The translations under genes were made by a program, and so were the position numbers. A stretch of DNA of 42,375 nt, from NCBI GenBank assembly GCA_001004005.1, contig LCQF01000009.1, forward strand, positions 1 to 42,375, given 5' to 3'. The notes beneath the pieces are model-generated. The model was not told the origin of the DNA and made no database searches. It saw only the letters and a program-made list of their open reading frames with translations. How positions within the stretch are numbered: position 1 is the first letter of the stretch; each line of letters starts with the position of its first letter. The stretch is from Parcubacteria group bacterium GW2011_GWA2_49_9 (lineage in GTDB: Bacteria; Patescibacteriota; Minisyncoccia; Phycocordibacterales; UBA10002). Of the stretch, positions 3,484 to 36,895 are shown in pieces.

Positions 3484-3517
3484 TCAGCAATAACAAGCGG
3501 TCGCTTGTTATTGCTGA
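3484..3517. repeat. Palindrome abutting the stop codon of the PaaX/Cas2-like gene
   Basis: tcagcaataacaagcg-gt-cgcttgttattgctga; core 3486-3515 identical to 4156-4185. Confidence 0.95.
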
Positions 3518-4132
3518 TTATACTTCTTGATTCATACCAAAGAAATCTTTTAGCATTTTTTCGTTATCGATATGAACGGCAAGAATATAACGGATGTATT
3601 TCCCAACATTATAGAGACCAGCGATAAATTGTATTTCGCTCAAACACTCATAGGGATAGATAAAGACTGATTTTTGTAGTTCGTAAAAACCGAGCCGAAA
3701 GAGGTGCTCTCTTAGCGAATCACGAGCGGATTTTTCATCCTCGGGGACATCAAAGGAAACGATTCGCCACAGCCTGTCCCATCGTGAAGGAACAGGTATT
3801 TTCATCCTCACGATATCGTATGTTAATGCTTTCTTACGGCCTTTCTCGGAAAGGGTGAGTGTTGCTGTCCCATCCGCGTTTTCCTTCGCCTCGACAAGCT
3901 CCGAGGCATAAAGAGAATTCACTACTCGCTCGGCGGCCTGTCGTCCCAGTTCCTTCCACTCCTTGTTCATACCTTGCACGATTTTCCACGAGGTGCGAGG
4001 CGAACCCGAAAGACCAAGAGTAAGACCGCCGAGCAACAGAAGAAGCGCTTTTCTTTTAGCGATTCCTATCCGGCAATCTTTATGCCGTGCTAGTTTATCG
4101 CGCACCTCTTTCATTTTTTCCTGTTTACTCAT
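3518..4132 (-). CDS. PaaX-like protein (winged helix plus Cas2-like domain)
   Basis: wHTH region ending LTLSEKGRK, then WDRLWRIVSFDVPE...RDSLREHL..LGFYELQKSVF, typical of the PaaX central / Cas2-like fold. Confidence 0.85.
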   Translation of the reverse strand: MSKQEKMKEVRDKLARHKDCRIGIAKRKALLLLLGGLTLGLSGSPRTSWKIVQGMNKEWKELGRQAAERVVNSLYASELVEAKENADGTATLTLSEKGRKKALTYDIVRMKIPVPSRWDRLWRIVSFDVPEDEKSARDSLREHLFRLGFYELQKSVFIYPYECLSEIQFIAGLYNVGKYIRYILAVHIDNEKMLKDFFGMNQEV

Positions 4133-4155
4133 GGTAAGTAGGGGACGATAATCTA

Positions 4156-4185
4156 AGCAATAACAAGCGGTCGCTTGTTATTGCT
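4156..4185. repeat. 30-bp palindrome upstream of the PaaX/Cas2-like gene
   Basis: agcaataacaagcg-gt-cgcttgttattgct, identical to 3486-3515. Confidence 0.95.
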
Positions 4186-4192
4186 AAAAGGC

Positions 4193-5465
4193 TTACAGTT
4201 TTTTGCGGATGATGGGGCCGAAGTCGGTGTCCATCACCTCGTAACCTTCCTTTTGAATTTGGTCGCGGAGTTCGTCGGATTTTTTGAAGTCTTTGACTTT
4301 GCGCGCGTCTTCGCGTGCCGTGGCAAGTTTTTTTATAGCTTCGGGAATAGGTTTATCTGAGGTTATCAAATCTCTTTTGTCCAGTTCAAGCCCTAGGACC
4401 TTATCGAAATCTAGAATTGTAGCTCGCTTTTCTTCTGGAGATATCTTTAAATCATCCCGTACAGCAAAGAGCACACTAAGACCAACTGCCGTATTTAAGT
4501 CGTCATTAATTGCATCCAGAAACCTGTCTTTGTAACTCTGATTTATTCTTCCACCTTCAGGTAATTCGCAAATTTCTCTTCTTAGCGATTGCAGACCAGC
4601 TCCAAGTAATACAGGCAGTCCAACATATTTAATTGGCGTGCTATATTTTGCCAGAAGTAAAAAGTATCGATACGCAAGTGAGTGAATACCCTCGTCTTTT
4701 AATGTCTGCAGAGTAATAAAATTTTCCCCGGACTTTGCCATCTTGGTGTCGCCCATATTGACGAACTCATTGTGAAGCCAAAAGTTCGCAAGGGGAGTGT
4801 CGTAGGCCGCTTCGGACTGGGCGATTTCGTTTTGGTGGTGCGTCGGAATATGGTCGATACCTCCGGTATGAATATCAAACGGTTGCCCGAGGAATTTGCG
4901 GGACATCGCGGAACATTCGATATGCCAGCCGGGGAAACCTTTGCCGTAGGGCGGGAAATCCCAGCCTAAATCAGTCGAGGAAAACTTCCACAGAGAAAAA
5001 TCGCGCGGATTTTTCTTTTCCGCGTTTATCGCAATGCGCGCACCCTCTCGCAGGTCGCCGAGCTTAAACCCTCCCCGTGTTCCGTATGAAGGGAACTTGG
5101 ATGTATCAAAATAAATACCGTCACTCGTCTTGTAGGCGCTTCCTTTCTCCAACAGTTTTTGCACAATCTCAATATCTTCCGCGATATTGTCGCTCGCGCG
5201 AGGCATCGCATCGGGCAGTTCGATATTGAGTGCCTTCAAATCTTCCGTAAACGCGGTTTCGTATTTCCGCGCGATTTCCTGCATTGCTTCAAACGTAAAG
5301 GGTTTTCCTTCGCGCTTCAGCGCCTTTATCATCTTGTCGTCGCCGTCATCGTTATCGGAGGTGAGGTGGCCGACGTCGGTGATGTTCATTACGTGCTTTA
5401 CCTTGTAGCCGTTGTATTTGTTTGAATTCCTCTTTTTTGCCAGTGAGGGTGTTGTAGAGAAGCAT
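4193..5465 (-). pseudogene. cysS: Cysteine--tRNA ligase with internal deletion and frameshift near the 5' end (or a local assembly error)
   Basis: MLLYNTLTGKKEEFK from ATG 5465 joins out of frame at ~5420 to KYNGYKVKHVMNITDVGH...GFPGWHIECSAM...DIHTGG...KMAKS; the CGPTVY and HIGH segment is absent. Confidence 0.8.
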
Positions 5466-5558
5466 AGCTTATAGCGTATAGCGTATAGCGTATAGCGTAT
5501 AATTTCCAGAAAGATTCTCCTTTCTTTCCTAAAAGCTATAAGCTAACAGCTATCAGCT
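5466..5558. repeat. 7-bp-unit tandem/inverted repeat (TATAGCG x4, AGCTA units)
   Basis: tatagcg x4 at 5470-5497; aaaagctataagctaacagctatcagct at 5531-5558; related tract in opposite orientation at ~9332-9368. Confidence 0.75.
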
Positions 5559-5561
5559 TTT

Positions 5562-6476
5562 TCAGAACCACTGCTTCCGTCTGGCGAGCCAGAACAGAAA
5601 CGCGGTACCAAAAAGGGTGAGCGACACAATAATAAGCCAGTCGTATGGCCCGCCGATTATCGGCGTATGAGCAGTACTCATCTGGAAAAAGTTGGTCACT
5701 ACCGACGCGGGGAGCGTCAAGAACGCGATAACGGTAATGATACGCATTGTTTCCGTCTCCTTGGTATCAAGGAGCGAGTTATTCGTCTCGCGGAGTTCCA
5801 CCAGGAGTGCGAGGTTGCTGTCAACCGCGTTTCCCACGCGGCCGAAGCTTCCGATAAGCGTCTGTAGCTGGAACGCGAAGCTCTCGCCAAACAGTATTCG
5901 TCCAGCTACGGCGAACGACTGGAGGACATCGCGGTGAAGCGCGAGTGCCCGCTTGGTTTCCAAAAGGTTACGGGAAAGTTTGGAAAGGGCGACGACCATC
6001 TGCCGCTCCTTACCGTCAAAAATTTTCTGCTCAATATCGCGCATACTATCACTCCCGACCGAAAGCTCATTCAGGACGGACTCATACAATTTCTCAATCA
6101 TATGCGCGAACACAAAACCGGCATGAGTGCCGAAATCCTCTTTACCCAACACCGCGCTTGCCTCAAAGAGTTTGGCGAACACGTGCAAGACCTCATTTCC
6201 GCTGTAGCGAACCGTGATAAGAAACTTTTTACCGACGATAAAATCTATTTCCTGACTTTGCTCGCTGGTACGGTCGCGACGGAAACGGGGGAAATGAAGA
6301 ATCAGGTAAATGAAGTCTTTATATAAATCCACCTTCGGCTTTACGGACGGAGCGGAGAGCTCATGAACGACGAGAGGATTGAGGTCATACTCCTTCGCGA
6401 GCGCGCGTATTTCGTCCTGTGTTGGGGATTCCGCGTCAATCCACGTGAGTTTGCGGTTCGTGTGCTTTGTTATCAT
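5562..6476 (-). CDS. CorA-family divalent cation transporter (QMS in place of GMN)
   Basis: MITKH..LTWIDAESPT, LILHFP, EIDFIVGKKFLITV, two C-terminal TM helices; ATG 6476 lies 6 nt after TATACT. Confidence 0.9.
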   Translation of the reverse strand: MITKHTNRKLTWIDAESPTQDEIRALAKEYDLNPLVVHELSAPSVKPKVDLYKDFIYLILHFPRFRRDRTSEQSQEIDFIVGKKFLITVRYSGNEVLHVFAKLFEASAVLGKEDFGTHAGFVFAHMIEKLYESVLNELSVGSDSMRDIEQKIFDGKERQMVVALSKLSRNLLETKRALALHRDVLQSFAVAGRILFGESFAFQLQTLIGSFGRVGNAVDSNLALLVELRETNNSLLDTKETETMRIITVIAFLTLPASVVTNFFQMSTAHTPIIGGPYDWLIIVSLTLFGTAFLFWLARRKQWF

Positions 6477-6483
6477 CTGAACA

Positions 6484-6530
6484 GTATACCCCCACACCAA
6501 CTTTGCGACAAAGTTGGTGTGGGGGTATAC
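6484..6530. repeat. CCCCCACACCAA/TTGGTGTGGGGG palindromic element, intergenic copy
   Basis: 22-bp perfect arms with 3-nt loop; TATACC direct repeat at 6485-6490 and 6526-6531. Confidence 0.9.
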
Positions 6531-10603: not shown

Positions 10604-11340
10604 AAATCCTTATTTTTCAACACGTTCCGCATGAATCTCCCGGATATATTGCCGACTACGCGAAAGAGAAGGGAATAACCCTTACCGTTTTGGAGCTATG
10701 GAAGCCCTATACGATGCCGGAAGCGGCGAGCTATGACGCGCTTATTGTGCTTGGAGGGCCGATGGGCGTGTACGACGACTTTCCGTCCAAAGAAGATGAA
10801 TTGCGAGTGATTCGGGACACTATGGGTAAAAAACCGCTTCTTGGTATTTGCCTCGGAAGCCAGCTTCTCGCGCGCACGCTCGGCGCTAAAGTATACAAGA
10901 ATTTCAAAGACGGAAAGCGCGCCAAAGAAATCGGCTACTACGATGTCACACTGACGAAAGAGGGAAGTGAGTCACCTTTGTTCAAGGATTTTACTTCTTC
11001 GTTTAAGGTGCTCCAGTGGCATGGCGATGCATTTGATTTACCCCCACACCAATCCGCCGAGGATTGGTGTGGGGGCGTACCGCAAGGAGCGACTCTCCTT
11101 GCCTCATCGCCTCTCTGCGACAATCAGGCATTCTTGTACAAGAGCGCGTATGGGACTCTCTTTCATACAGAATTCACGGTGGATATGGTGAAAAATCTGG
11201 CTGACATTGACCGCGCATGGACTCACGAAGATTTTAATCTGGATGAGCAAAAACTTTTGGCGGAAGCTGAATCTCTCGCACCGCTTATGAAAAAACAGTG
11301 CTACCGACTGTTGGATAATTTTCTTGTGAAGGCCAAATAA
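10600..11340 (+). CDS. Type 1 glutamine amidotransferase with a 13-aa palindrome-derived insertion
   Basis: QHVPHESPG, LGGPMGV, catalytic GICLG, WHGD, FHTE; ATGA overlap with upstream gene. Confidence 0.92.
   Translation: MKILIFQHVPHESPGYIADYAKEKGITLTVLELWKPYTMPEAASYDALIVLGGPMGVYDDFPSKEDELRVIRDTMGKKPLLGICLGSQLLARTLGAKVYKNFKDGKRAKEIGYYDVTLTKEGSESPLFKDFTSSFKVLQWHGDAFDLPPHQSAEDWCGGVPQGATLLASSPLCDNQAFLYKSAYGTLFHTEFTVDMVKNLADIDRAWTHEDFNLDEQKLLAEAESLAPLMKKQCYRLLDNFLVKAK
11039..11081. repeat. CCCCCACACCAA/TTGGTGTGGGGG palindromic element inserted in frame
   Basis: cccccacaccaatcc-gccga-ggattggtgtggggg flanked by TACC direct repeats 39 bp apart. Confidence 0.88.
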
Positions 11341-11351
11341 TGCATGTTGCT

Positions 11352-11381
11352 TATAGGCTAATTCGTGCGAATTAGCCTATA
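11352..11381. repeat. 30-bp intergenic palindrome
   Basis: tataggctaattcg-tg-cgaattagcctata (14+2+14). Confidence 0.8.
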
Positions 11382-13699: not shown

Positions 13700-14875
13700 A
13701 TGAAGAAAGTTATATGGTCAATAGTTGGAGTTGCGACACTTTTATTTCTAATTGTAGTCGTTGCGGCTCAAAGTGAAGTGATATCAAAAAGCCTTGGTGC
13801 GGCGACACAAGGAACTGATAAAGGTGTCGATGGTCCCATTAAGATAGGTGGAGCCTTCGGGCAGACGGGTATTTGCGCCGAGTTCGGCGAGGGGGAATTT
13901 CGAGGCGCAACGCTTGCGGTTGAGGATATCAATATGGCGGGAGGAATAGATGGGAAAAAGTTAGTCCTTGTTGCCGAGGATACGCTCTGTGAAAACAAAG
14001 GAGTAGCCAATGCTACTCAGAAGCTCGTAAGTATTGAAAAAGTCTCGGCCATTATCGGCCCCACGTGGGGAGATACGTTCCAAAGCGGATATCCCATTTC
14101 TCGTTCCGCGAATGTTATTTCTATCGGAGCATCTTCAGCCCTTGAGTCTCTTGTTTATACCGGGGCATCAAACGCGCTTGTATTCTCGACGTGGTTTCCA
14201 CAAAACCTTGAAATAGACGCCTTGGAAGCATACATCGCTTCGCAGGGTCTCAAGACGGTCTACATCATCCATGACCAAGATCCGTTCGGCGCCATGATGG
14301 GCATGCTTTTTAGAGATCAGGCTTCCCGTAATGGCCTCAGTATCATCGGCGAGGAGGTTGTTGCTACGGACATTTCTGATTTTCGCACACACATCACAAG
14401 GATGAAAAGCAAAAAACCTGATGCGGTATTCGTCTCGTTCGTCAGCCCCGACCACAAGGCTATTTTCTTTAAGCAAGCGAAAGAGCTCGGCTTCGCCACA
14501 CGTCTCTTCGCGTCCGCGGATACTGAAAATCCTGCCTTACTTGCATCGTTTTCGGATGCTCTCGACGGAGTCGTGTTTACTTCGCCGAAAGGTGCGACAA
14601 GGTATGACGAGTTTGCGCAAAAGTACGAGAAGCGCTTCGGCGAAAAACCACGAGTTTCTTCCAGTCATGCCTACGATGCGGTACGTGTTCTCGCGGCAGC
14701 TATCAAGGAAGCGAAAACGACAGATGGTTCTGATCTTGAACGAGCGCTTCTCTCTGTCGAAATTCCCGGCGTGACCTACAACACGCTCAAGTTTTCTGAC
14801 AAGCACCAGATTGTCGGTGGAGAATTCGTAATAAAAACAGTCCGGAACGGAAAGTTCGTAATAATCAGTAAATAA
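13700..14875 (+). CDS. Branched-chain-amino-acid-type substrate-binding protein (LivJ/K-like)
   Basis: N-terminal TM, PIKIG, INMAGGIDGKKLVLVAED, IIGP, AYDAV; no permease or ATPase adjacent. Confidence 0.9.
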   Translation: MKKVIWSIVGVATLLFLIVVVAAQSEVISKSLGAATQGTDKGVDGPIKIGGAFGQTGICAEFGEGEFRGATLAVEDINMAGGIDGKKLVLVAEDTLCENKGVANATQKLVSIEKVSAIIGPTWGDTFQSGYPISRSANVISIGASSALESLVYTGASNALVFSTWFPQNLEIDALEAYIASQGLKTVYIIHDQDPFGAMMGMLFRDQASRNGLSIIGEEVVATDISDFRTHITRMKSKKPDAVFVSFVSPDHKAIFFKQAKELGFATRLFASADTENPALLASFSDALDGVVFTSPKGATRYDEFAQKYEKRFGEKPRVSSSHAYDAVRVLAAAIKEAKTTDGSDLERALLSVEIPGVTYNTLKFSDKHQIVGGEFVIKTVRNGKFVIISK

Positions 14876-22275: not shown

Positions 22276-23547
22276 TCACAAATACTTAAGCGGGTCCAAG
22301 TACGCCTTCAGGTCCGCAATCGGCATCGTGTAGGTGCCCTTACAGACGGCACTTTTACGCTCCATCACGCGGACGCCTTGGGTGGCGTAGACGGTTAAGT
22401 GCAGATGCGGGCCGGTTGAGTAACCGGTGTCTCCACTGTAGCCAAGGAGTTCTCCCGTCCCGACATACTGTCCCTGCGCGACTTTGATAAGTGAGAAATG
22501 AGCGTACAGAGTTGAAAGCCCGTTCGCATGCTCCACAAGTACCCATTTACCGTATGAAGCTCCGGGACAGACCGCATCGGTATCTCCGGTCCCTCGTACG
22601 ACTCCGCTAAGCGCCGACTTAACGCGAGTGCCGGTAGGCGCGCCGAAGTCAACGCCGTTGTGCCCTTTGCCATTGTACGCGCCGCTCTTGGCAAAGGCCG
22701 TATCGCCGAATTTTTGCGTAATGCGGATGCTGTCAAGCGGCCATTTCAGAACGCCGGAGCCTGCCGCAGGAAGAAGTGAGGGGTCTATGGCAAAACGAAG
22801 TTCCGATTCAAATTGTAAGAGTTCCCGTTCAAACGCGTCACGCTTGGCTACTTTCTCGGCGAGAATTTTTCGGTACTCCGTTTCCTTACTTTTAGTTGAC
22901 GCGAGTAGCGTATTTTTCGCTTTCCGGTTCTGGACAAGTAAGATGTTTTGGTCCGACAGGTCGGTGCGTAGCGTCACCAGCCGCTCCCTGTTCTTCTTTG
23001 TTTCGGTTTGCACGCCCTCAAGGTTGGCTTTCAGTGCCCTTGTTTTATTCAAGTCGTCCTCCAAATTTTTCTGGAATCGCTGCAGGTCATCAACCACTCC
23101 CCACATGGTGGAGAGTGTCGCTCCCGAGAGTATCGTTTCAACAAGTGTTTGCTGTTCCGCTCCGTTGAGATTCCGTATGGTCTGTCCGAGTGCGCTCCTG
23201 CTTTCGCCGATTTTGTTTTCCTTCACGTCTATGGCGTCCGCGAGCTCCTGCAAACGGAGATTCACGGCGGAAATTCTGTTTTCCGTAAGTTTGATTTGTG
23301 CCGAAAGTTTTTTCTGTTCAAGGTCTATGCTTCGTATCGTGTTCTGAAGAGTTTTAGTTTCCTTTCCCGTTGTTTCCAACTGTTCCTGATAGCCGGCAAT
23401 TTCTTTCTCAAGGTCTGCAATGGCAGTGTTCCGTTCGGTAATTTTGTTTTTGAGGTCGGTTATCGTGTCGGCACGCGCAGAAAATGTGTGAAAAGCTAAG
23501 AAAAGCAGGATTAAGGTATATAAAAAAACAGCACGAAATTTAGGCAT
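22276..23547 (-). CDS. M23 peptidase with long N-terminal coiled coil (EnvC-like architecture)
   Basis: Signal peptide, coiled coil, intact HNGVD and GPHLH zinc motifs; ATG 23547 lies 6 nt after TGTTATAAT. Confidence 0.93.
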   Translation of the reverse strand: MPKFRAVFLYTLILLFLAFHTFSARADTITDLKNKITERNTAIADLEKEIAGYQEQLETTGKETKTLQNTIRSIDLEQKKLSAQIKLTENRISAVNLRLQELADAIDVKENKIGESRSALGQTIRNLNGAEQQTLVETILSGATLSTMWGVVDDLQRFQKNLEDDLNKTRALKANLEGVQTETKKNRERLVTLRTDLSDQNILLVQNRKAKNTLLASTKSKETEYRKILAEKVAKRDAFERELLQFESELRFAIDPSLLPAAGSGVLKWPLDSIRITQKFGDTAFAKSGAYNGKGHNGVDFGAPTGTRVKSALSGVVRGTGDTDAVCPGASYGKWVLVEHANGLSTLYAHFSLIKVAQGQYVGTGELLGYSGDTGYSTGPHLHLTVYATQGVRVMERKSAVCKGTYTMPIADLKAYLDPLKYL

Positions 23548-28678: not shown

Positions 28679-29737
28679 TTAGCTGACCAGCGTTACGATA
28701 AGGCCGAGGAGTGCGAAAATAACCGAAAGTACCCAGTAGCGCATCGTTACCTTGTAGGACGGCCAGCCGATGGCCTCAAAGTGGTGGTGGAGTGGTGAAA
28801 TAATGAAGAGCTTCTTCCCGAAGAACCGTTTCCACAGTTTTTGTAAAATTACCGAGGCGCTGGTCGCAAAGAGTGGAAAAGCAATAATGGGGAGGACGAA
28901 TAACCCTTCTCCCTCGCCAAGAGAGTCGGTCATAAACGCGACAATCGCGAGTGTAAGTGTGAGTGCCATACTCCCCGTCTCCGACATATAAAAACGGGCG
29001 GGTGGGATATTAAACCACAGAAAAGCGAGGATGCCGCCAAGAAGCGCCGCGCAGAACGCGGCGAGGTTTATTTGGCTTTGGAAGAAAGCGATAACGCCAT
29101 ACGCGCCGAAAATGACGGCGAAAATACCTCCTGCGAGCCCATCAATCCCGTCAATAATTCCGCCCGAGTAGACCGCGAGCATTACGAGCGCGAATAGAGG
29201 AATGATAAGCCATCCGAGGGCGAGTGGTCCGAAGTACGGGATGCCGATACTCGTCACATCAAGCTTATAGTGGAACCACAGACCTGCCAGTAAGCCAACC
29301 ACGCCGACGATAAGCAGACGCTTCCCGAGTGAAAGCCCTCCAGCCTTGTAGTCGCCTGTTCCACGCACCTCAAAAAGGTCATCAATAAGGCCGATGCACG
29401 CGCCGATAAAAAGCGCCGCGAACGGAATCCACGTCTGGTTTCTGTTCAGGAAATCCAATTTTTCTATAAGCGGGAAATTGGAAAGACTGGCCAGTACGTA
29501 AATACCCACAATCGCGATAGTGGCGGAAATCCAGATAATCACCCCGCCCATTCGTGGCGTACCCGTCTCGCGGGTTTCGTGTAGCTTGTTGAACAGAGGT
29601 GTTCCCTCTCCCTTCCCCACTTTTTTCTTCCACATCTTGTGTGTGTAGAGGTAGTGGCTGATGACCGGCGTAATACCGATACCGAGCGCGAAGGCCAGCA
29701 GCGCGGGAAGAAAAACTTTGATTAAATCTAGGAGCAT
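28679..29737 (-). CDS. mraY: Phospho-N-acetylmuramoyl-pentapeptide transferase
   Basis: GTPRMGG, IGLIDD, DGIDGL, FNIPPARFYM, PLHHHFE. Confidence 0.95.
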   Translation of the reverse strand: MLLDLIKVFLPALLAFALGIGITPVISHYLYTHKMWKKKVGKGEGTPLFNKLHETRETGTPRMGGVIIWISATIAIVGIYVLASLSNFPLIEKLDFLNRNQTWIPFAALFIGACIGLIDDLFEVRGTGDYKAGGLSLGKRLLIVGVVGLLAGLWFHYKLDVTSIGIPYFGPLALGWLIIPLFALVMLAVYSGGIIDGIDGLAGGIFAVIFGAYGVIAFFQSQINLAAFCAALLGGILAFLWFNIPPARFYMSETGSMALTLTLAIVAFMTDSLGEGEGLFVLPIIAFPLFATSASVILQKLWKRFFGKKLFIISPLHHHFEAIGWPSYKVTMRYWVLSVIFALLGLIVTLVS

Positions 29738-29746
29738 AAAGAAGTA

Positions 29747-29836
29747 TCAATTTACAATTATCAATTTTCAATCAAGGTAGCAATGTTTAAATTCTTAAAT
29801 CGGATTTTGAAAATTGGAAATTGGAAATTGAAAATT
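29747..29836. repeat. 7-bp-unit (CAATTT/AAATTG) inverted tandem repeat
   Basis: tcaatttacaattatcaattttcaa...ttgaaaattggaaattggaaattgaaaatt. Confidence 0.7.
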
Positions 29837-29850
29837 CTCGCGTATCACAA

Positions 29851-30810
29851 CTAATTATTCTGGAGATACGCGAGGGCTGCCCACACCAGCGCTTCCGCGT
29901 CGGTGAACCGACCGTCAATAGTGGAACCGAGAACGGAAACGATAATCGGATGATTGAAACCTGCGTCAAACGCGATAACAAGATTTCCGCCGGCAAGGTC
30001 AGTGTATCCCGTCTTAGAGGCGATAAGCAAGGGGAACGTATCGGTTTCCTTGTTGGTGTTTTTCGCTTCATGGTCCTCTCTATCTCCGGCAAGTAAGAGC
30101 TCGCTCCATCGTGTCTCCGAAAAAATTGAAGGAAATTTCTCAAGGCCGTACGCGAGCATATGCGACGTTTCCTTGGCGGTGCTGTACGCGCCGGCGCGCT
30201 CCGTATCAAGGTCTAGTCCGCTCTCATTCAAGAAACGTGTTGAGGAAAGTCCGATAAGCTCCGACAATTTGTTCATCTCTCCGACAAACAATGCGCGACT
30301 TTCCTCATTGCTTTGCGTGCTCGTGGCCAGAATGCCACCAACTGAAGATGAAACAGCTACCGCTCCATCGTTGGACGATTCAATCAACGTGAACTTCAAC
30401 AGGTTGCGTAGTAGCCAGCGTTCGCCCACCGTAAGCCCGCTGTTCCCTTCCGCTCGTATGGCCTCGGCGTCAATCGTGATGTAGGTAGTTTCGGGGAGAA
30501 AGGAAAGGGCGGTTGCCGCGGTCATAATTTTGGTAACCGAAGCGAGAGGTAACACCTCATCTTCGTTTTTCGCAAACAGAGGTTTTCCAGCTTTTACGTC
30601 ATACACATACGCGGCTTTGGCCGAAAGCGAAACAGAGTCAAACGGATTTTCTTTCGGCGCGGTAACTCCTCCAACCGCGGCAACCGCAGTGGAGGGGACT
30701 GTCGGGTTCGGCGCACTAATCAAAAAGAAAAATGAGCAAAGAGTAGCCGCCCAGAAGAAATACTCCGGGCGAATGATGTGGCTATGTTGCTCGTACCATT
30801 TTTGAATCAT
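29851..30810 (-). CDS. D-alanyl-D-alanine carboxypeptidase (peptidase S11)
   Basis: SxxK (ASVTK), SxN (SSND), KTG motifs. Confidence 0.93.
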   Translation of the reverse strand: MIQKWYEQHSHIIRPEYFFWAATLCSFFFLISAPNPTVPSTAVAAVGGVTAPKENPFDSVSLSAKAAYVYDVKAGKPLFAKNEDEVLPLASVTKIMTAATALSFLPETTYITIDAEAIRAEGNSGLTVGERWLLRNLLKFTLIESSNDGAVAVSSSVGGILATSTQSNEESRALFVGEMNKLSELIGLSSTRFLNESGLDLDTERAGAYSTAKETSHMLAYGLEKFPSIFSETRWSELLLAGDREDHEAKNTNKETDTFPLLIASKTGYTDLAGGNLVIAFDAGFNHPIIVSVLGSTIDGRFTDAEALVWAALAYLQNN

Positions 30811-35908: not shown

Positions 35909-36895
35909 TTAATACAACTTCACCCCCACTTTTTCCCGCACCTCCTCCATCTTTGCCGAGGCTTTGGCGCGGGCACGGAGGCCACCTTCCTTTAACATTT
36001 TGAGTACGGCTTCCTTGTCTTCGGCAATCGACTTACGCTTCTCCCGAAGCGGGCGGATAAATGTTTTGATATCTTCAATAAGCGCTTCCTTCAATATTTT
36101 ATATTTGCCCTCGTTCTGTGCGTAAAAGTCATCGAGACGGGCACCGTCCGACAAGCTTGTCGGACGGTGCCCGTCTAACGCAAACAACGTATGGATTTCG
36201 TGGACATTTTTTGGGATTCCACCCGAAGAGTCTGTCACAATACTCATCACACACTTTTCAATCTCGGCATCTTCGGCAAAAAGCGGAATCGTATTTCCTT
36301 TACTCTTGCTCATCTTCTCTCCGTCAATACCCGGCACTACGCTGACGTCGGAAAGAATCATCGGTTGCGGAAGTTTGAATGTCTCTCCATAGACACGATT
36401 AAACTTCTCCGCGGTATCGCGGGCGATTTCTACGTGCTGTTTTTGGTCCTGCCCTACCGGTACGACATCCGCGTCATACAGTAAAATATCCGCCGCCATA
36501 AGTAGCGGGTAGTTAAACGTGCCGACATTTACCTCGCTCCGCTTCGCCTGCGCGTCCTTGAACGCGTGCGCGCGCTCCAGATACGGGACGGTGGTCAGGC
36601 ACTCAAATATCCATGCAAGCTCCATATGCTCGGGAATGTCGGACTGCTTGTAGAGCGTGACATTCTTCGGGTCAAGACCGATGGCGAGGTAATCAATTGC
36701 CACATTCAGGATATTCTGTTTGAGCTCCTTTGGATTTTGAAGTGTCGTCAGCGCGTGATAGTCGGCAATAAAAATAAACGTCTCGTGTTCCTTCTGGAGT
36801 TCCACGAATTGCTTCATCGCGCCGAAATAGTTCCCGATGTGAGGTCGGCCTGAAGGTTGGATACCGGATAGCAGTATTTTGCGGTCTTTAGACAT
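35909..36895 (-). CDS. trpS: Tryptophan--tRNA ligase
   Basis: SGIQPSG..HIGNYFGA, YPLLMAADILL, VPVGQDQKQH, KMSKS. Confidence 0.97.
   Translation of the reverse strand: MSKDRKILLSGIQPSGRPHIGNYFGAMKQFVELQKEHETFIFIADYHALTTLQNPKELKQNILNVAIDYLAIGLDPKNVTLYKQSDIPEHMELAWIFECLTTVPYLERAHAFKDAQAKRSEVNVGTFNYPLLMAADILLYDADVVPVGQDQKQHVEIARDTAEKFNRVYGETFKLPQPMILSDVSVVPGIDGEKMSKSKGNTIPLFAEDAEIEKCVMSIVTDSSGGIPKNVHEIHTLFALDGHRPTSLSDGARLDDFYAQNEGKYKILKEALIEDIKTFIRPLREKRKSIAEDKEAVLKMLKEGGLRARAKASAKMEEVREKVGVKLY
36135..36176. repeat. Perfect 42-bp palindrome inside trpS
   Basis: agacgggcaccgtccgacaag|cttgtcggacggtgcccgtct. Confidence 0.92.

Follow-up and report, generated by a model that had tools for sequence, protein, structure and literature searches.

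A PaaX/Cas2-like gene enclosed by its own palindromes in Patescibacteria, a candidate self-repressing regulator module

The DNA analysed here (hereafter, the window) comprises positions 1 to 42,375 of contig LCQF01000009.1 of Parcubacteria group bacterium GW2011_GWA2_49_9 (assembly GCA_001004005.1), a length of 42,375 nt, and carries between an NTP transferase gene and cysS a gene for a 204-aa PaaX/Cas2-like protein (the query) that is boxed by two identical 30-bp palindromes (Table 1). Coordinates without a contig label refer to the window; G000 denotes the source genome, G001 and so on related genomes, C a contig, and L a locus. The palindrome, AGCAATAACAAGCGGTCGCTTGTTATTGCT, occurred with no mismatch on the + strand at 3486-3515 and at 4156-4185 and with 2 mismatches on the - strand, so that its central GT reads the same way in both copies; no such pair arose in 100 shuffles. 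The original prediction had placed two identical palindromes of the same orientation at these positions, one beside the stop codon and one shortly before the ATG, and all of its coordinates agreed. It had also described 11-bp arms around an 8-bp core, which was incorrect, as the arms are 14 bp long around the GT and widen to 16 bp in the 3' copy (3484-3517). In its 30-bp form, the 3' copy lies 2 nt from the stop codon of the boxed gene and 20 nt from the stop codon of the convergent NTP transferase gene. A third exact copy was found on another contig (G000:C31:21571-21600), which makes three in G000. A half-site search of the genome at up to 2 mismatches returned 27 matches, namely the 6 exact arms of these three sites and 21 isolated 2-mismatch matches, and thus no degenerate copies of the query type. 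Within locus L003 (G000:C31:20071-23100), the third copy is located 27 nt after a DUF2283 gene and 37 nt upstream of a 292-aa open reading frame (ORF) that matches no Pfam family and whose N-terminus includes a hydrophobic stretch.

Table 1. Positions of the boxed gene, its palindromes, and a solo palindrome in the window
Feature	Position	Strand	Remarks
Upstream (5') palindrome copy	4156..4185	.	23 nt before the ATG and 7 nt past the cysS stop; candidate operator at the gene promoter
Short leader from upstream palindrome to ATG	4133..4155	-	23 nt; median gap in the family 22 nt
204-aa gene with winged helix-like and Cas2-like (PaaX_M) domains	3518..4132	-	Only ORF between the palindromes
Downstream (3') palindrome copy, 16-bp arms	3484..3517	.	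Abuts the stop codon; spacer convergent with the NTP transferase gene
Solo palindrome of the same family, other type, TTTTAGCAAACACTGACGGCCGTCAGTGTTTGCTAAAA	153..190	.	14 nt past the recR stop

The 204-aa protein matched PaaX_M (PF20803) over residues 116-190 (E 1.4e-20, 73.6 bits against a cut-off of 24) and contained the FDVP and QKSVF motifs, in agreement with the Cas2-like part of the architecture proposed originally. Regarding Cas2 itself, PF09827 scored 21.4 bits, under its cut-off of 23.8, TIGR01573 (cas2) scored 29.2 bits against a cut-off of 24.5, and PADLOC Cas2 models also matched; the TIGR01573 and PADLOC matches covered residues 123-159 only, corresponding to positions 3-40 of 96 in the TIGR01573 model. 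The aspartate of FDV (D128) and S155 were invariant across 53 aligned relatives. Residues 1-115 gave no Pfam match at E up to 1, the PaaX winged-helix model (PF07848) included. The PaaX_C ligand domain was not matched, the protein stopping at residue 204, and TIGR02277 (the PaaX equivalog) scored 22 bits against a cut-off of 264.55. The profile matches consisted of PaaX_M and Cas2 only, with no HUH/Y1 (IS200-like) transposase domain among them. A PDB sequence search with the protein yielded no match at E up to 1, and an Rfam search yielded nothing close to any gathering score. No Cas1 (PF01867) was found in the 92%-complete G000 genome, and no CRISPR array was seen beside the gene in general repeat scans, a dedicated array search not having been made. 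The flanking genes are the NTP transferase gene and cysS, and paa catabolic genes are not neighbours.

An AlphaFold (AF2) model built from the 53 relatives had a predicted local distance difference test (pLDDT) score of 81.5, with values of 92-98 over ten-residue blocks 111-200, which correspond to the Cas2-like domain; the N-terminal part was modelled as three helices and a beta hairpin. In Foldseek, E. coli PaaX ranked first (8A39; E 2.9e-4, 171 columns), and the matches next in rank, which concerned the C-terminal domain, were Cas2 and VapD chains. The homodimer model scored 0.42 against 0.01 for the best control, with contacts 100% consistent over three runs and a partner pLDDT of at least 80. 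Of 30 proteins with solved structures as pairs of one chain, 20 reached this mark, compared with 1 of 23 whose structures are single chains, and the pass may rest on likeness to the solved Cas2 and PaaX dimers. The modelled interface comprised residues 121-128, 152-156, and 181-190, with D128 at the dimer axis of the model.

Database records name relatives of the protein 'hypothetical', 'PaaX', or 'Cas2', in some cases 'CRISPR-associated endonuclease Cas2', and the protein could accordingly be read as a fused toxin/antitoxin-like or orphan CRISPR-type Cas2 nuclease, that is, a Cas2/VapD-like ribonuclease or deoxyribonuclease whose winged helix only autoregulates. It shares with Cas2 and VapD a ferredoxin-like fold, an aspartate after strand 1 (the invariant D128), a Q-SVF motif, and, in the model, dimerisation via the same sheet, and the TIGR01573 score, the PADLOC matches, and the structural matches to Cas2 and VapD toxins point the same way. 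However, the Cas2-like domain is fused to a putative winged helix, the sequence match spans only about 37 residues, PaaX_M scores far better, Cas1 was not found, and a nuclease of this kind would leave both the 3' palindrome and the solo copies described below unexplained. We therefore regard a Cas2-type nuclease as quite improbable, and the Cas2 label on members of this family is misleading.

The source genome contained seven paralogues, of which the six others were 29-49% identical to the query, and several were boxed by their own, differing palindromes. Members of the family were detected in 36 of 61 related genomes, among them each of the 20 that were searched within the genus; a genome gave 1-10 matches, many of them near contig ends. 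Across the phylum, 75 of the 301 genomes sampled had the family. The host genomes measured about 0.5-1.1 Mb. Boxing was counted for the 70 family genes whose flanks both reached 200 nt or more. Palindromes were present on both sides of 51 genes, on one side of 14, and on neither side of 5, so the boxed layout is far more general than one window could show. By a strict rule, 44 of the 51 pairs matched; most of the other seven failed on register only, and two (L091 and L095) were truly unlike. Among 260 other ORFs of G000 (150-260 aa), taken as controls, nine had palindromes on both sides and two had matched pairs, one of the two being a RAYT-like gene. The palindrome types differed by gene and the copies matched per gene, and the protein tree resolved clades that each carry their own palindrome types. 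The expectations that homologues would carry paired flanking palindromes and that the protein and palindromes belong together were thus borne out. The upstream palindrome ended at a median of 22 nt ahead of the estimated start; the downstream one began at a median of 9 nt from the stop codon, was within 25 nt in 43 of 52 cases, and overlapped the ORF end in 9 of 52. No description of this module was found in the literature, most subscription journals not being covered.

Most palindrome types shared an outer motif, TTTAGCA...TGCTAAA, and all had C at -3 from the centre. The central 6-mers were CGGCCG (32), CGATCG (22), CGGTCG/CGACCG (22), CTATAG (10), CTATCG/CGATAG (7), CATATG (4), CACGTG (4), and CGGGCG (1). 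Of 102 palindromes, 72 had a self-complementary central 4-mer, a feature to be expected of a two-fold symmetric duplex site but not of a hairpin loop. In boxes with asymmetric centres, the two copies had the same orientation in 7 and opposite orientations in 5. A search for residue-to-base covariation over 66 protein/half-site pairs reached a top normalised mutual information of about 0.6 without a clean pair; the values were spread over many columns and positions and represent clade signal.

The gene order dnaB, NTP transferase, query gene, cysS was common across the genus. At the site between the NTP transferase gene and cysS, the gene was present and boxed in six genomes (G000, G001, G002, G009, G010, and G014), with inner palindrome arms that vary between species, and two contigs of G008 that end in the same palindrome suggest the same arrangement. 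The site was cleanly empty in G017 and G020, where the neighbours abut. Other inserts occupied it in G004, G013, and G015; in G004 this was an unrelated ORF of 89 aa, enclosed by palindromes that belong to a paralogue located on a different contig. A paralogous unit, G000:C8, was colinear with G020:C34 over 3.2 kb at 76.8% DNA identity; the proteins were 88% identical, and both 36-bp palindromes were 100% identical. This colinearity with unchanged palindromes indicates stable inheritance of the unit and strong (purifying) constraint on the palindromes, which argues against a recently mobile cassette. The original prediction had argued that an operator would not need the 3' copy and that the unit was hence mobile, and this step is not supported, given the synteny just described. 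The gene itself is syntenic and vertically inherited, and its homologues clearly do carry flanking palindromes.

The query clade (10 rows, support 100/99) consisted of genes at the NTP transferase/cysS site, with second-locus genes (G001:C52 and G017:C125) nested inside, and G017 has its second-locus gene while its NTP transferase/cysS site is empty. G009 and G002 were closest by NTP transferase identity (74% each), yet their proteins were only 55-58% identical to the query, among the least alike in the clade. This may reflect either rapid joint evolution of genes and sites or an exchange of cassettes. The region of the third query palindrome (C31, downstream of pth) varied in gene content among five relatives. 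In G009, two other family palindromes followed pth, neither of them of the type of its own NTP transferase/cysS unit, and co-evolution of box and solo palindrome could thus not be shown.

The empty sites, the other inserts, the shared orientation of the query copies, and the occurrence of one protein clade at two loci would all suit a mobile single-gene cassette, excised and inserted through Xer/dif- or lox-type site-specific recombination between its palindromes. Such a cassette is nevertheless highly improbable. In pdif modules and lox cassettes, recombinase sites are shared, with an asymmetric core and fixed orientation, whereas the sites here are private to each paralogue, mostly symmetric at the centre, and of mixed orientation where asymmetric, and the unit is vertically stable. 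Empty sites in relatives, which had been proposed as a check, were indeed found, but the single palindrome expected there was not, the sites in G017 and G020 being scarless. No joint across the cassette or a circle junction was found in the contigs of four metagenome runs, these being short contigs only and the evidence weak. An insertion sequence or transposon was also considered and rejected, as G000 holds no near-identical copies of the gene; recent gene transposition is likewise not indicated, no two copies in G000 being more than 49% identical. Overall, of the original interpretation, the pairing of protein and palindromes and the likeness to repetitive extragenic palindromic (REP) systems were supported, while recent mobility and lox/dif/Xer sites were not.

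In 34 of 64 upstream palindromes, the gene-side end together with the adjoining bases made up an extended -10 element (TGnTAnnnT), and in 19 of these no more than one of the six positions departed from TATAAT. The corresponding count was 15 of 64 for the outer end of the upstream palindromes, and 10 and 13 of 62 for the two ends of the downstream palindromes. The element was retained in clades with unrelated arms, for example TGCTAAAAT, TGGTATAAT, and TGGTAATAT. Judged from sequence, such an asymmetry is consistent with an operator that overlaps the promoter of its gene. According to a review, E. coli PaaX binds TGATTC(N27)GAATCA, a sequence whose half-sites are spaced by about 33 bp, acts as repressor of its own Px promoter, and uses its Cas2-like domain for dimerisation (PMC9493321); a 30-40 bp site therefore suits this fold.

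The reading we favour, at somewhat better than even probability, is that the query is a dimeric PaaX-type autorepressor with a private operator that overlaps its own promoter and a second copy of that operator beside its stop codon. The unit would be a compact, self-enclosed regulator module, in which the 204-aa protein represents a shortened PaaX type with a winged helix and a Cas2-fold domain forming a two-fold symmetric dimer. We infer that the dimer binds its private palindrome of about 30-36 bp, the outer arms being read by the two winged helices, and that the upstream palindrome covers the -10 region of the gene's promoter, which would lead to self-repression. The 3' copy would be a second binding site, which could loop to the upstream site, could block incoming antisense transcription from the convergent gene, and could also form a 3' hairpin of the mRNA. 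The family would have radiated into many paralogues with separate specificities, with extra palindromes in other intergenic spacers.

The likeness to PaaX, the phenylacetyl-CoA-responsive repressor of paa operons (structure from E. coli W, 8A39), thus lies in a putative winged helix followed by a Cas2-like dimerisation domain and in the proposed mode of action, the PaaX dimer likewise repressing its own promoter from a long inverted repeat whose half-sites are widely spaced (PMC9493321). The differences are as follows: the query lacks the C-terminal ligand-binding domain (204 aa against 305) and the paa context, scores far below the equivalog cut-off, and is associated with a palindrome that is perfect over its whole 30-36 bp, whereas the PaaX site consists of two hexamers with a free spacer; the family additionally shows another copy of the site at the gene's 3' end and many paralogues per genome with private sites. 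A repressor gene between its own operators, putative here, also recalls the immunity region of phage lambda. There, cI is located between the OL and OR operator sets, which can loop, and the operators control outward promoters, whereas the 3' site here faces a convergent gene.

Several observations weigh against the autorepressor. The upstream copy of the query itself lacks a strict TGnTAnnnT, only weaker -10-like hexamers (TAGATT and GATTAT) following it, and a sigma-70 scan detected no - strand promoter at this palindrome. The boxed pattern was weaker in 20 distant members of the phylum, of which 2 were boxed, 9 were one-sided, and 9 had no palindrome. A promoter operator does not explain the 3' copy, which was located between convergent genes in all five G000 paralogue units with both flanks mapped and thus controls no downstream promoter. 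Furthermore, at 81 arm positions the two copies of a box differed, and at 40 of these both arms had changed with pairing kept, which dimer binding alone does not by itself require. Some of these differences between copies were conserved between species (L105/L106 and L077/L081). Quasipalindromes can be corrected by template switching, and the compensated changes may reflect either such correction or selection for pairing. Sense-strand mismatches were of the G.T type in 22 cases and of the A.C type in 9, which is a hint only, the genes being related to one another.

These arm changes, and the excess of G.T mismatches, would be natural if the palindromes were mainly RNA or DNA hairpins, such as bidirectional terminators or stabilisers of mRNA 3' ends, that act independently of the protein, with the gene association as a by-product. 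The two query copies folded at -23.2 and -18.9 kcal/mol (z about -7), the 3' copy was scored as terminator-like for the + strand gene in a scan of the window, that is, for the convergent gene, and solo palindromes were found in convergent spacers on C2, C14, and C42. However, hairpins have no need for equal sequences at both ends of a gene or for paralogue-specific types, and most centres are self-complementary. The palindromes also bear a 5' T-run and a 3' A-run, the opposite of an intrinsic terminator, and an upstream copy whose inner end carries the -10 would be left out of the gene's transcript. Protein-independent hairpins are therefore an improbable explanation.

The distribution of palindromes outside the boxes is a further difficulty for the autorepressor. 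One type, AGCAATAGTATGCTATAGCATACTATTGCT, occurred at up to 2 mismatches in 21 places in 8 of 21 genomes. Four of these sites box genes in G001 and G017, and one stands beside a gene remnant (G001:C30). Among the 17 sites outside boxes only two syntenic pairs were found, and the places were mostly non-orthologous. G013, which is 100% complete and has one family gene of another clade, carried three exact copies without a cognate gene, and G000 carried two, likewise without a cognate gene; a fixed regulon does not predict such scattered copies. The spacer between pgk and HIT held a family palindrome in 6 of the 15 genomes in which both genes were found, the type varying by species, and contained a solo palindrome in G000 and a whole cassette in G037. 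The palindrome types at the 3' end of recR and in the region after pth likewise varied by species. A first synteny search of the G000 solo palindromes against 29 loci gave palindrome-length matches only, and the pgk/HIT case emerged when the search was widened. Metagenome contigs from four runs matched the palindrome only and were unlike on both sides beyond it. The solo palindrome in the window near recR has an identical twin at G000:C25:17881-17924; no cognate gene was found for this type in the G000 assembly, and in G010 it encloses a paralogue (L082).

Scattered copies, orphans, and changing types within a spacer constitute the behaviour of REP-type repeats. This raises the possibility, which we hold to be doubtful but real, of a partnership like that between REPINs (REP doublets forming hairpins) and RAYTs (REP-associated tyrosine transposases) with a different enzyme, in which the palindromes are copied or maintained by the cognate winged-helix/Cas2-fold protein. 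As a similarly tentative extension, the protein may cut DNA via the invariant Cas2-type aspartate, D128, at the modelled dimer axis, with the boxed gene as a vertically inherited master copy; autoregulation may coexist with this. The architecture equals that of real RAYT-like genes of G000 (C35:11927-12535 and C8:32100-32858), each boxed by its own palindromes, which makes the likeness to REP/RAYT modules drawn in the original prediction apt. In addition to the AGCAATAGTATGCTATAGCATACTATTGCT sites, the orphans, the variable spacers, the pgk/HIT contrast between G000 and G037, and the metagenome contigs, this partnership would accommodate the 89-aa ORF of G004 within the palindromes of a paralogue elsewhere and the ORF ends that overlap the 3' palindrome. 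Published descriptions present REPIN-RAYT systems as single-copy and vertically inherited, so that synteny is no argument against it.

Further likenesses to REPtrons and REPIN-RAYT systems are a gene flanked on both sides by cognate extragenic palindromes in paralogue-specific families, further copies dispersed in intergenic spacers, and vertical inheritance of the gene. On the other hand, copy numbers here were very low (1-6 per type and genome, 3 for the query type in G000) compared with the hundreds reported for REPINs, REPIN-like doublets were not seen as a rule, and the upstream palindrome of the family often carries a putative -10 of its gene. The protein has no HUH/Y1 domain, its nuclease activity is only putative, and canonical PaaX uses the same domain to dimerise. 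Neither target-site duplications nor recent insertions with clear-cut borders were found, the palindromes were unchanged between species at syntenic loci, and the compensated arm changes could come from template-switch correction. Going one step further, a second, independent REP-type system, in which the place of an HUH transposase is taken by a winged-helix Cas2-fold protein that recognises its private palindromes, maintains them, and at times spreads them, with one of them also serving for self-repression, is in our estimate unlikely.

Other boxed genes and palindromes were also present in the source genome, in which 157 palindromes with arms of 11 bp or longer were counted over 0.91 Mb. 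An 86-aa ArsR-like gene (22498-22758) was boxed by two identical 30-bp palindromes, TATAGGCTAATTCGCACGAATTAGCCTATA, at G000:C17:22442-22844, with related copies at 11352-11381 of the window and on C10 and C16. The boxed layout is thus shared by another regulator family, unrelated to the first. The two RAYT/IS200-like genes mentioned above encode proteins of 202 and 252 aa, and their boxes span G000:C35:11867-12571 and C8:32070-32873, respectively; members of a palindrome family related to theirs, TGTAGAAGTTAAACCTCTACAG, are scattered over C8, C17, C25, C26, and C31. A gene for a 138-aa DUF559/Vsr-like endonuclease (29702-30118) was located among three copies of GACCAGCCGTAGTTTGCGGCAAACTACGGCTGGTC at G000:C23:29458-30280, and this palindrome was also found on C3, C20, and C31. 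At G000:C10:14029-14764, a 174-aa ORF without family assignment (14163-14687) was boxed by two identical 63-bp repeats containing ATCTATTCGCCAATTCGCGCGAATTGGCGAATAGAT. Long palindromes of other families (GTATACCCCCACACCAAC and AGACGGGCACCGTCCGACAAGC), which recur on other contigs, were observed in the window at 6484-6530, 11041-11075, and 36135-36176. In G004, the pgk/HIT spacer contained a small GIY-YIG-like ORF with flanking inverted repeats, CTGTCATTCCCGCG (L138, on C15), and a 59-bp palindrome resembling these repeats was found at G000:C25:20739-20797. Regarding the neighbouring cysS gene (4193-5620, - strand), its N-terminus, MLLYNTLTGKKEEFK (approximately 5480-5540), and the rest, from YKVKHVMNITDVGH, were in different frames, and the gene lacked about 50 residues that carry the HIGH motif in relatives (468 aa in G017). 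It thus appears broken, either by a frameshift or deletion or through an assembly error.

Patescibacteria have few recognisable regulators. Against this background, the family stands out, with 1-10 members in the small genomes of a regulator-poor phylum. As judged from sequence comparison, its protein/site pairs appear naturally orthogonal and its sites are long and perfect, which would make the family a test bed for the evolution of DNA specificity in dimers. The 3' copy and the REP-like spread are not explained by a textbook repressor and could point to a novel means by which very compact genomes insulate or propagate a gene. If the REP-type reading were true, a Cas2-fold reader of palindromic repeats outside CRISPR would bear on the origin of the repeat-handling part of CRISPR adaptation.

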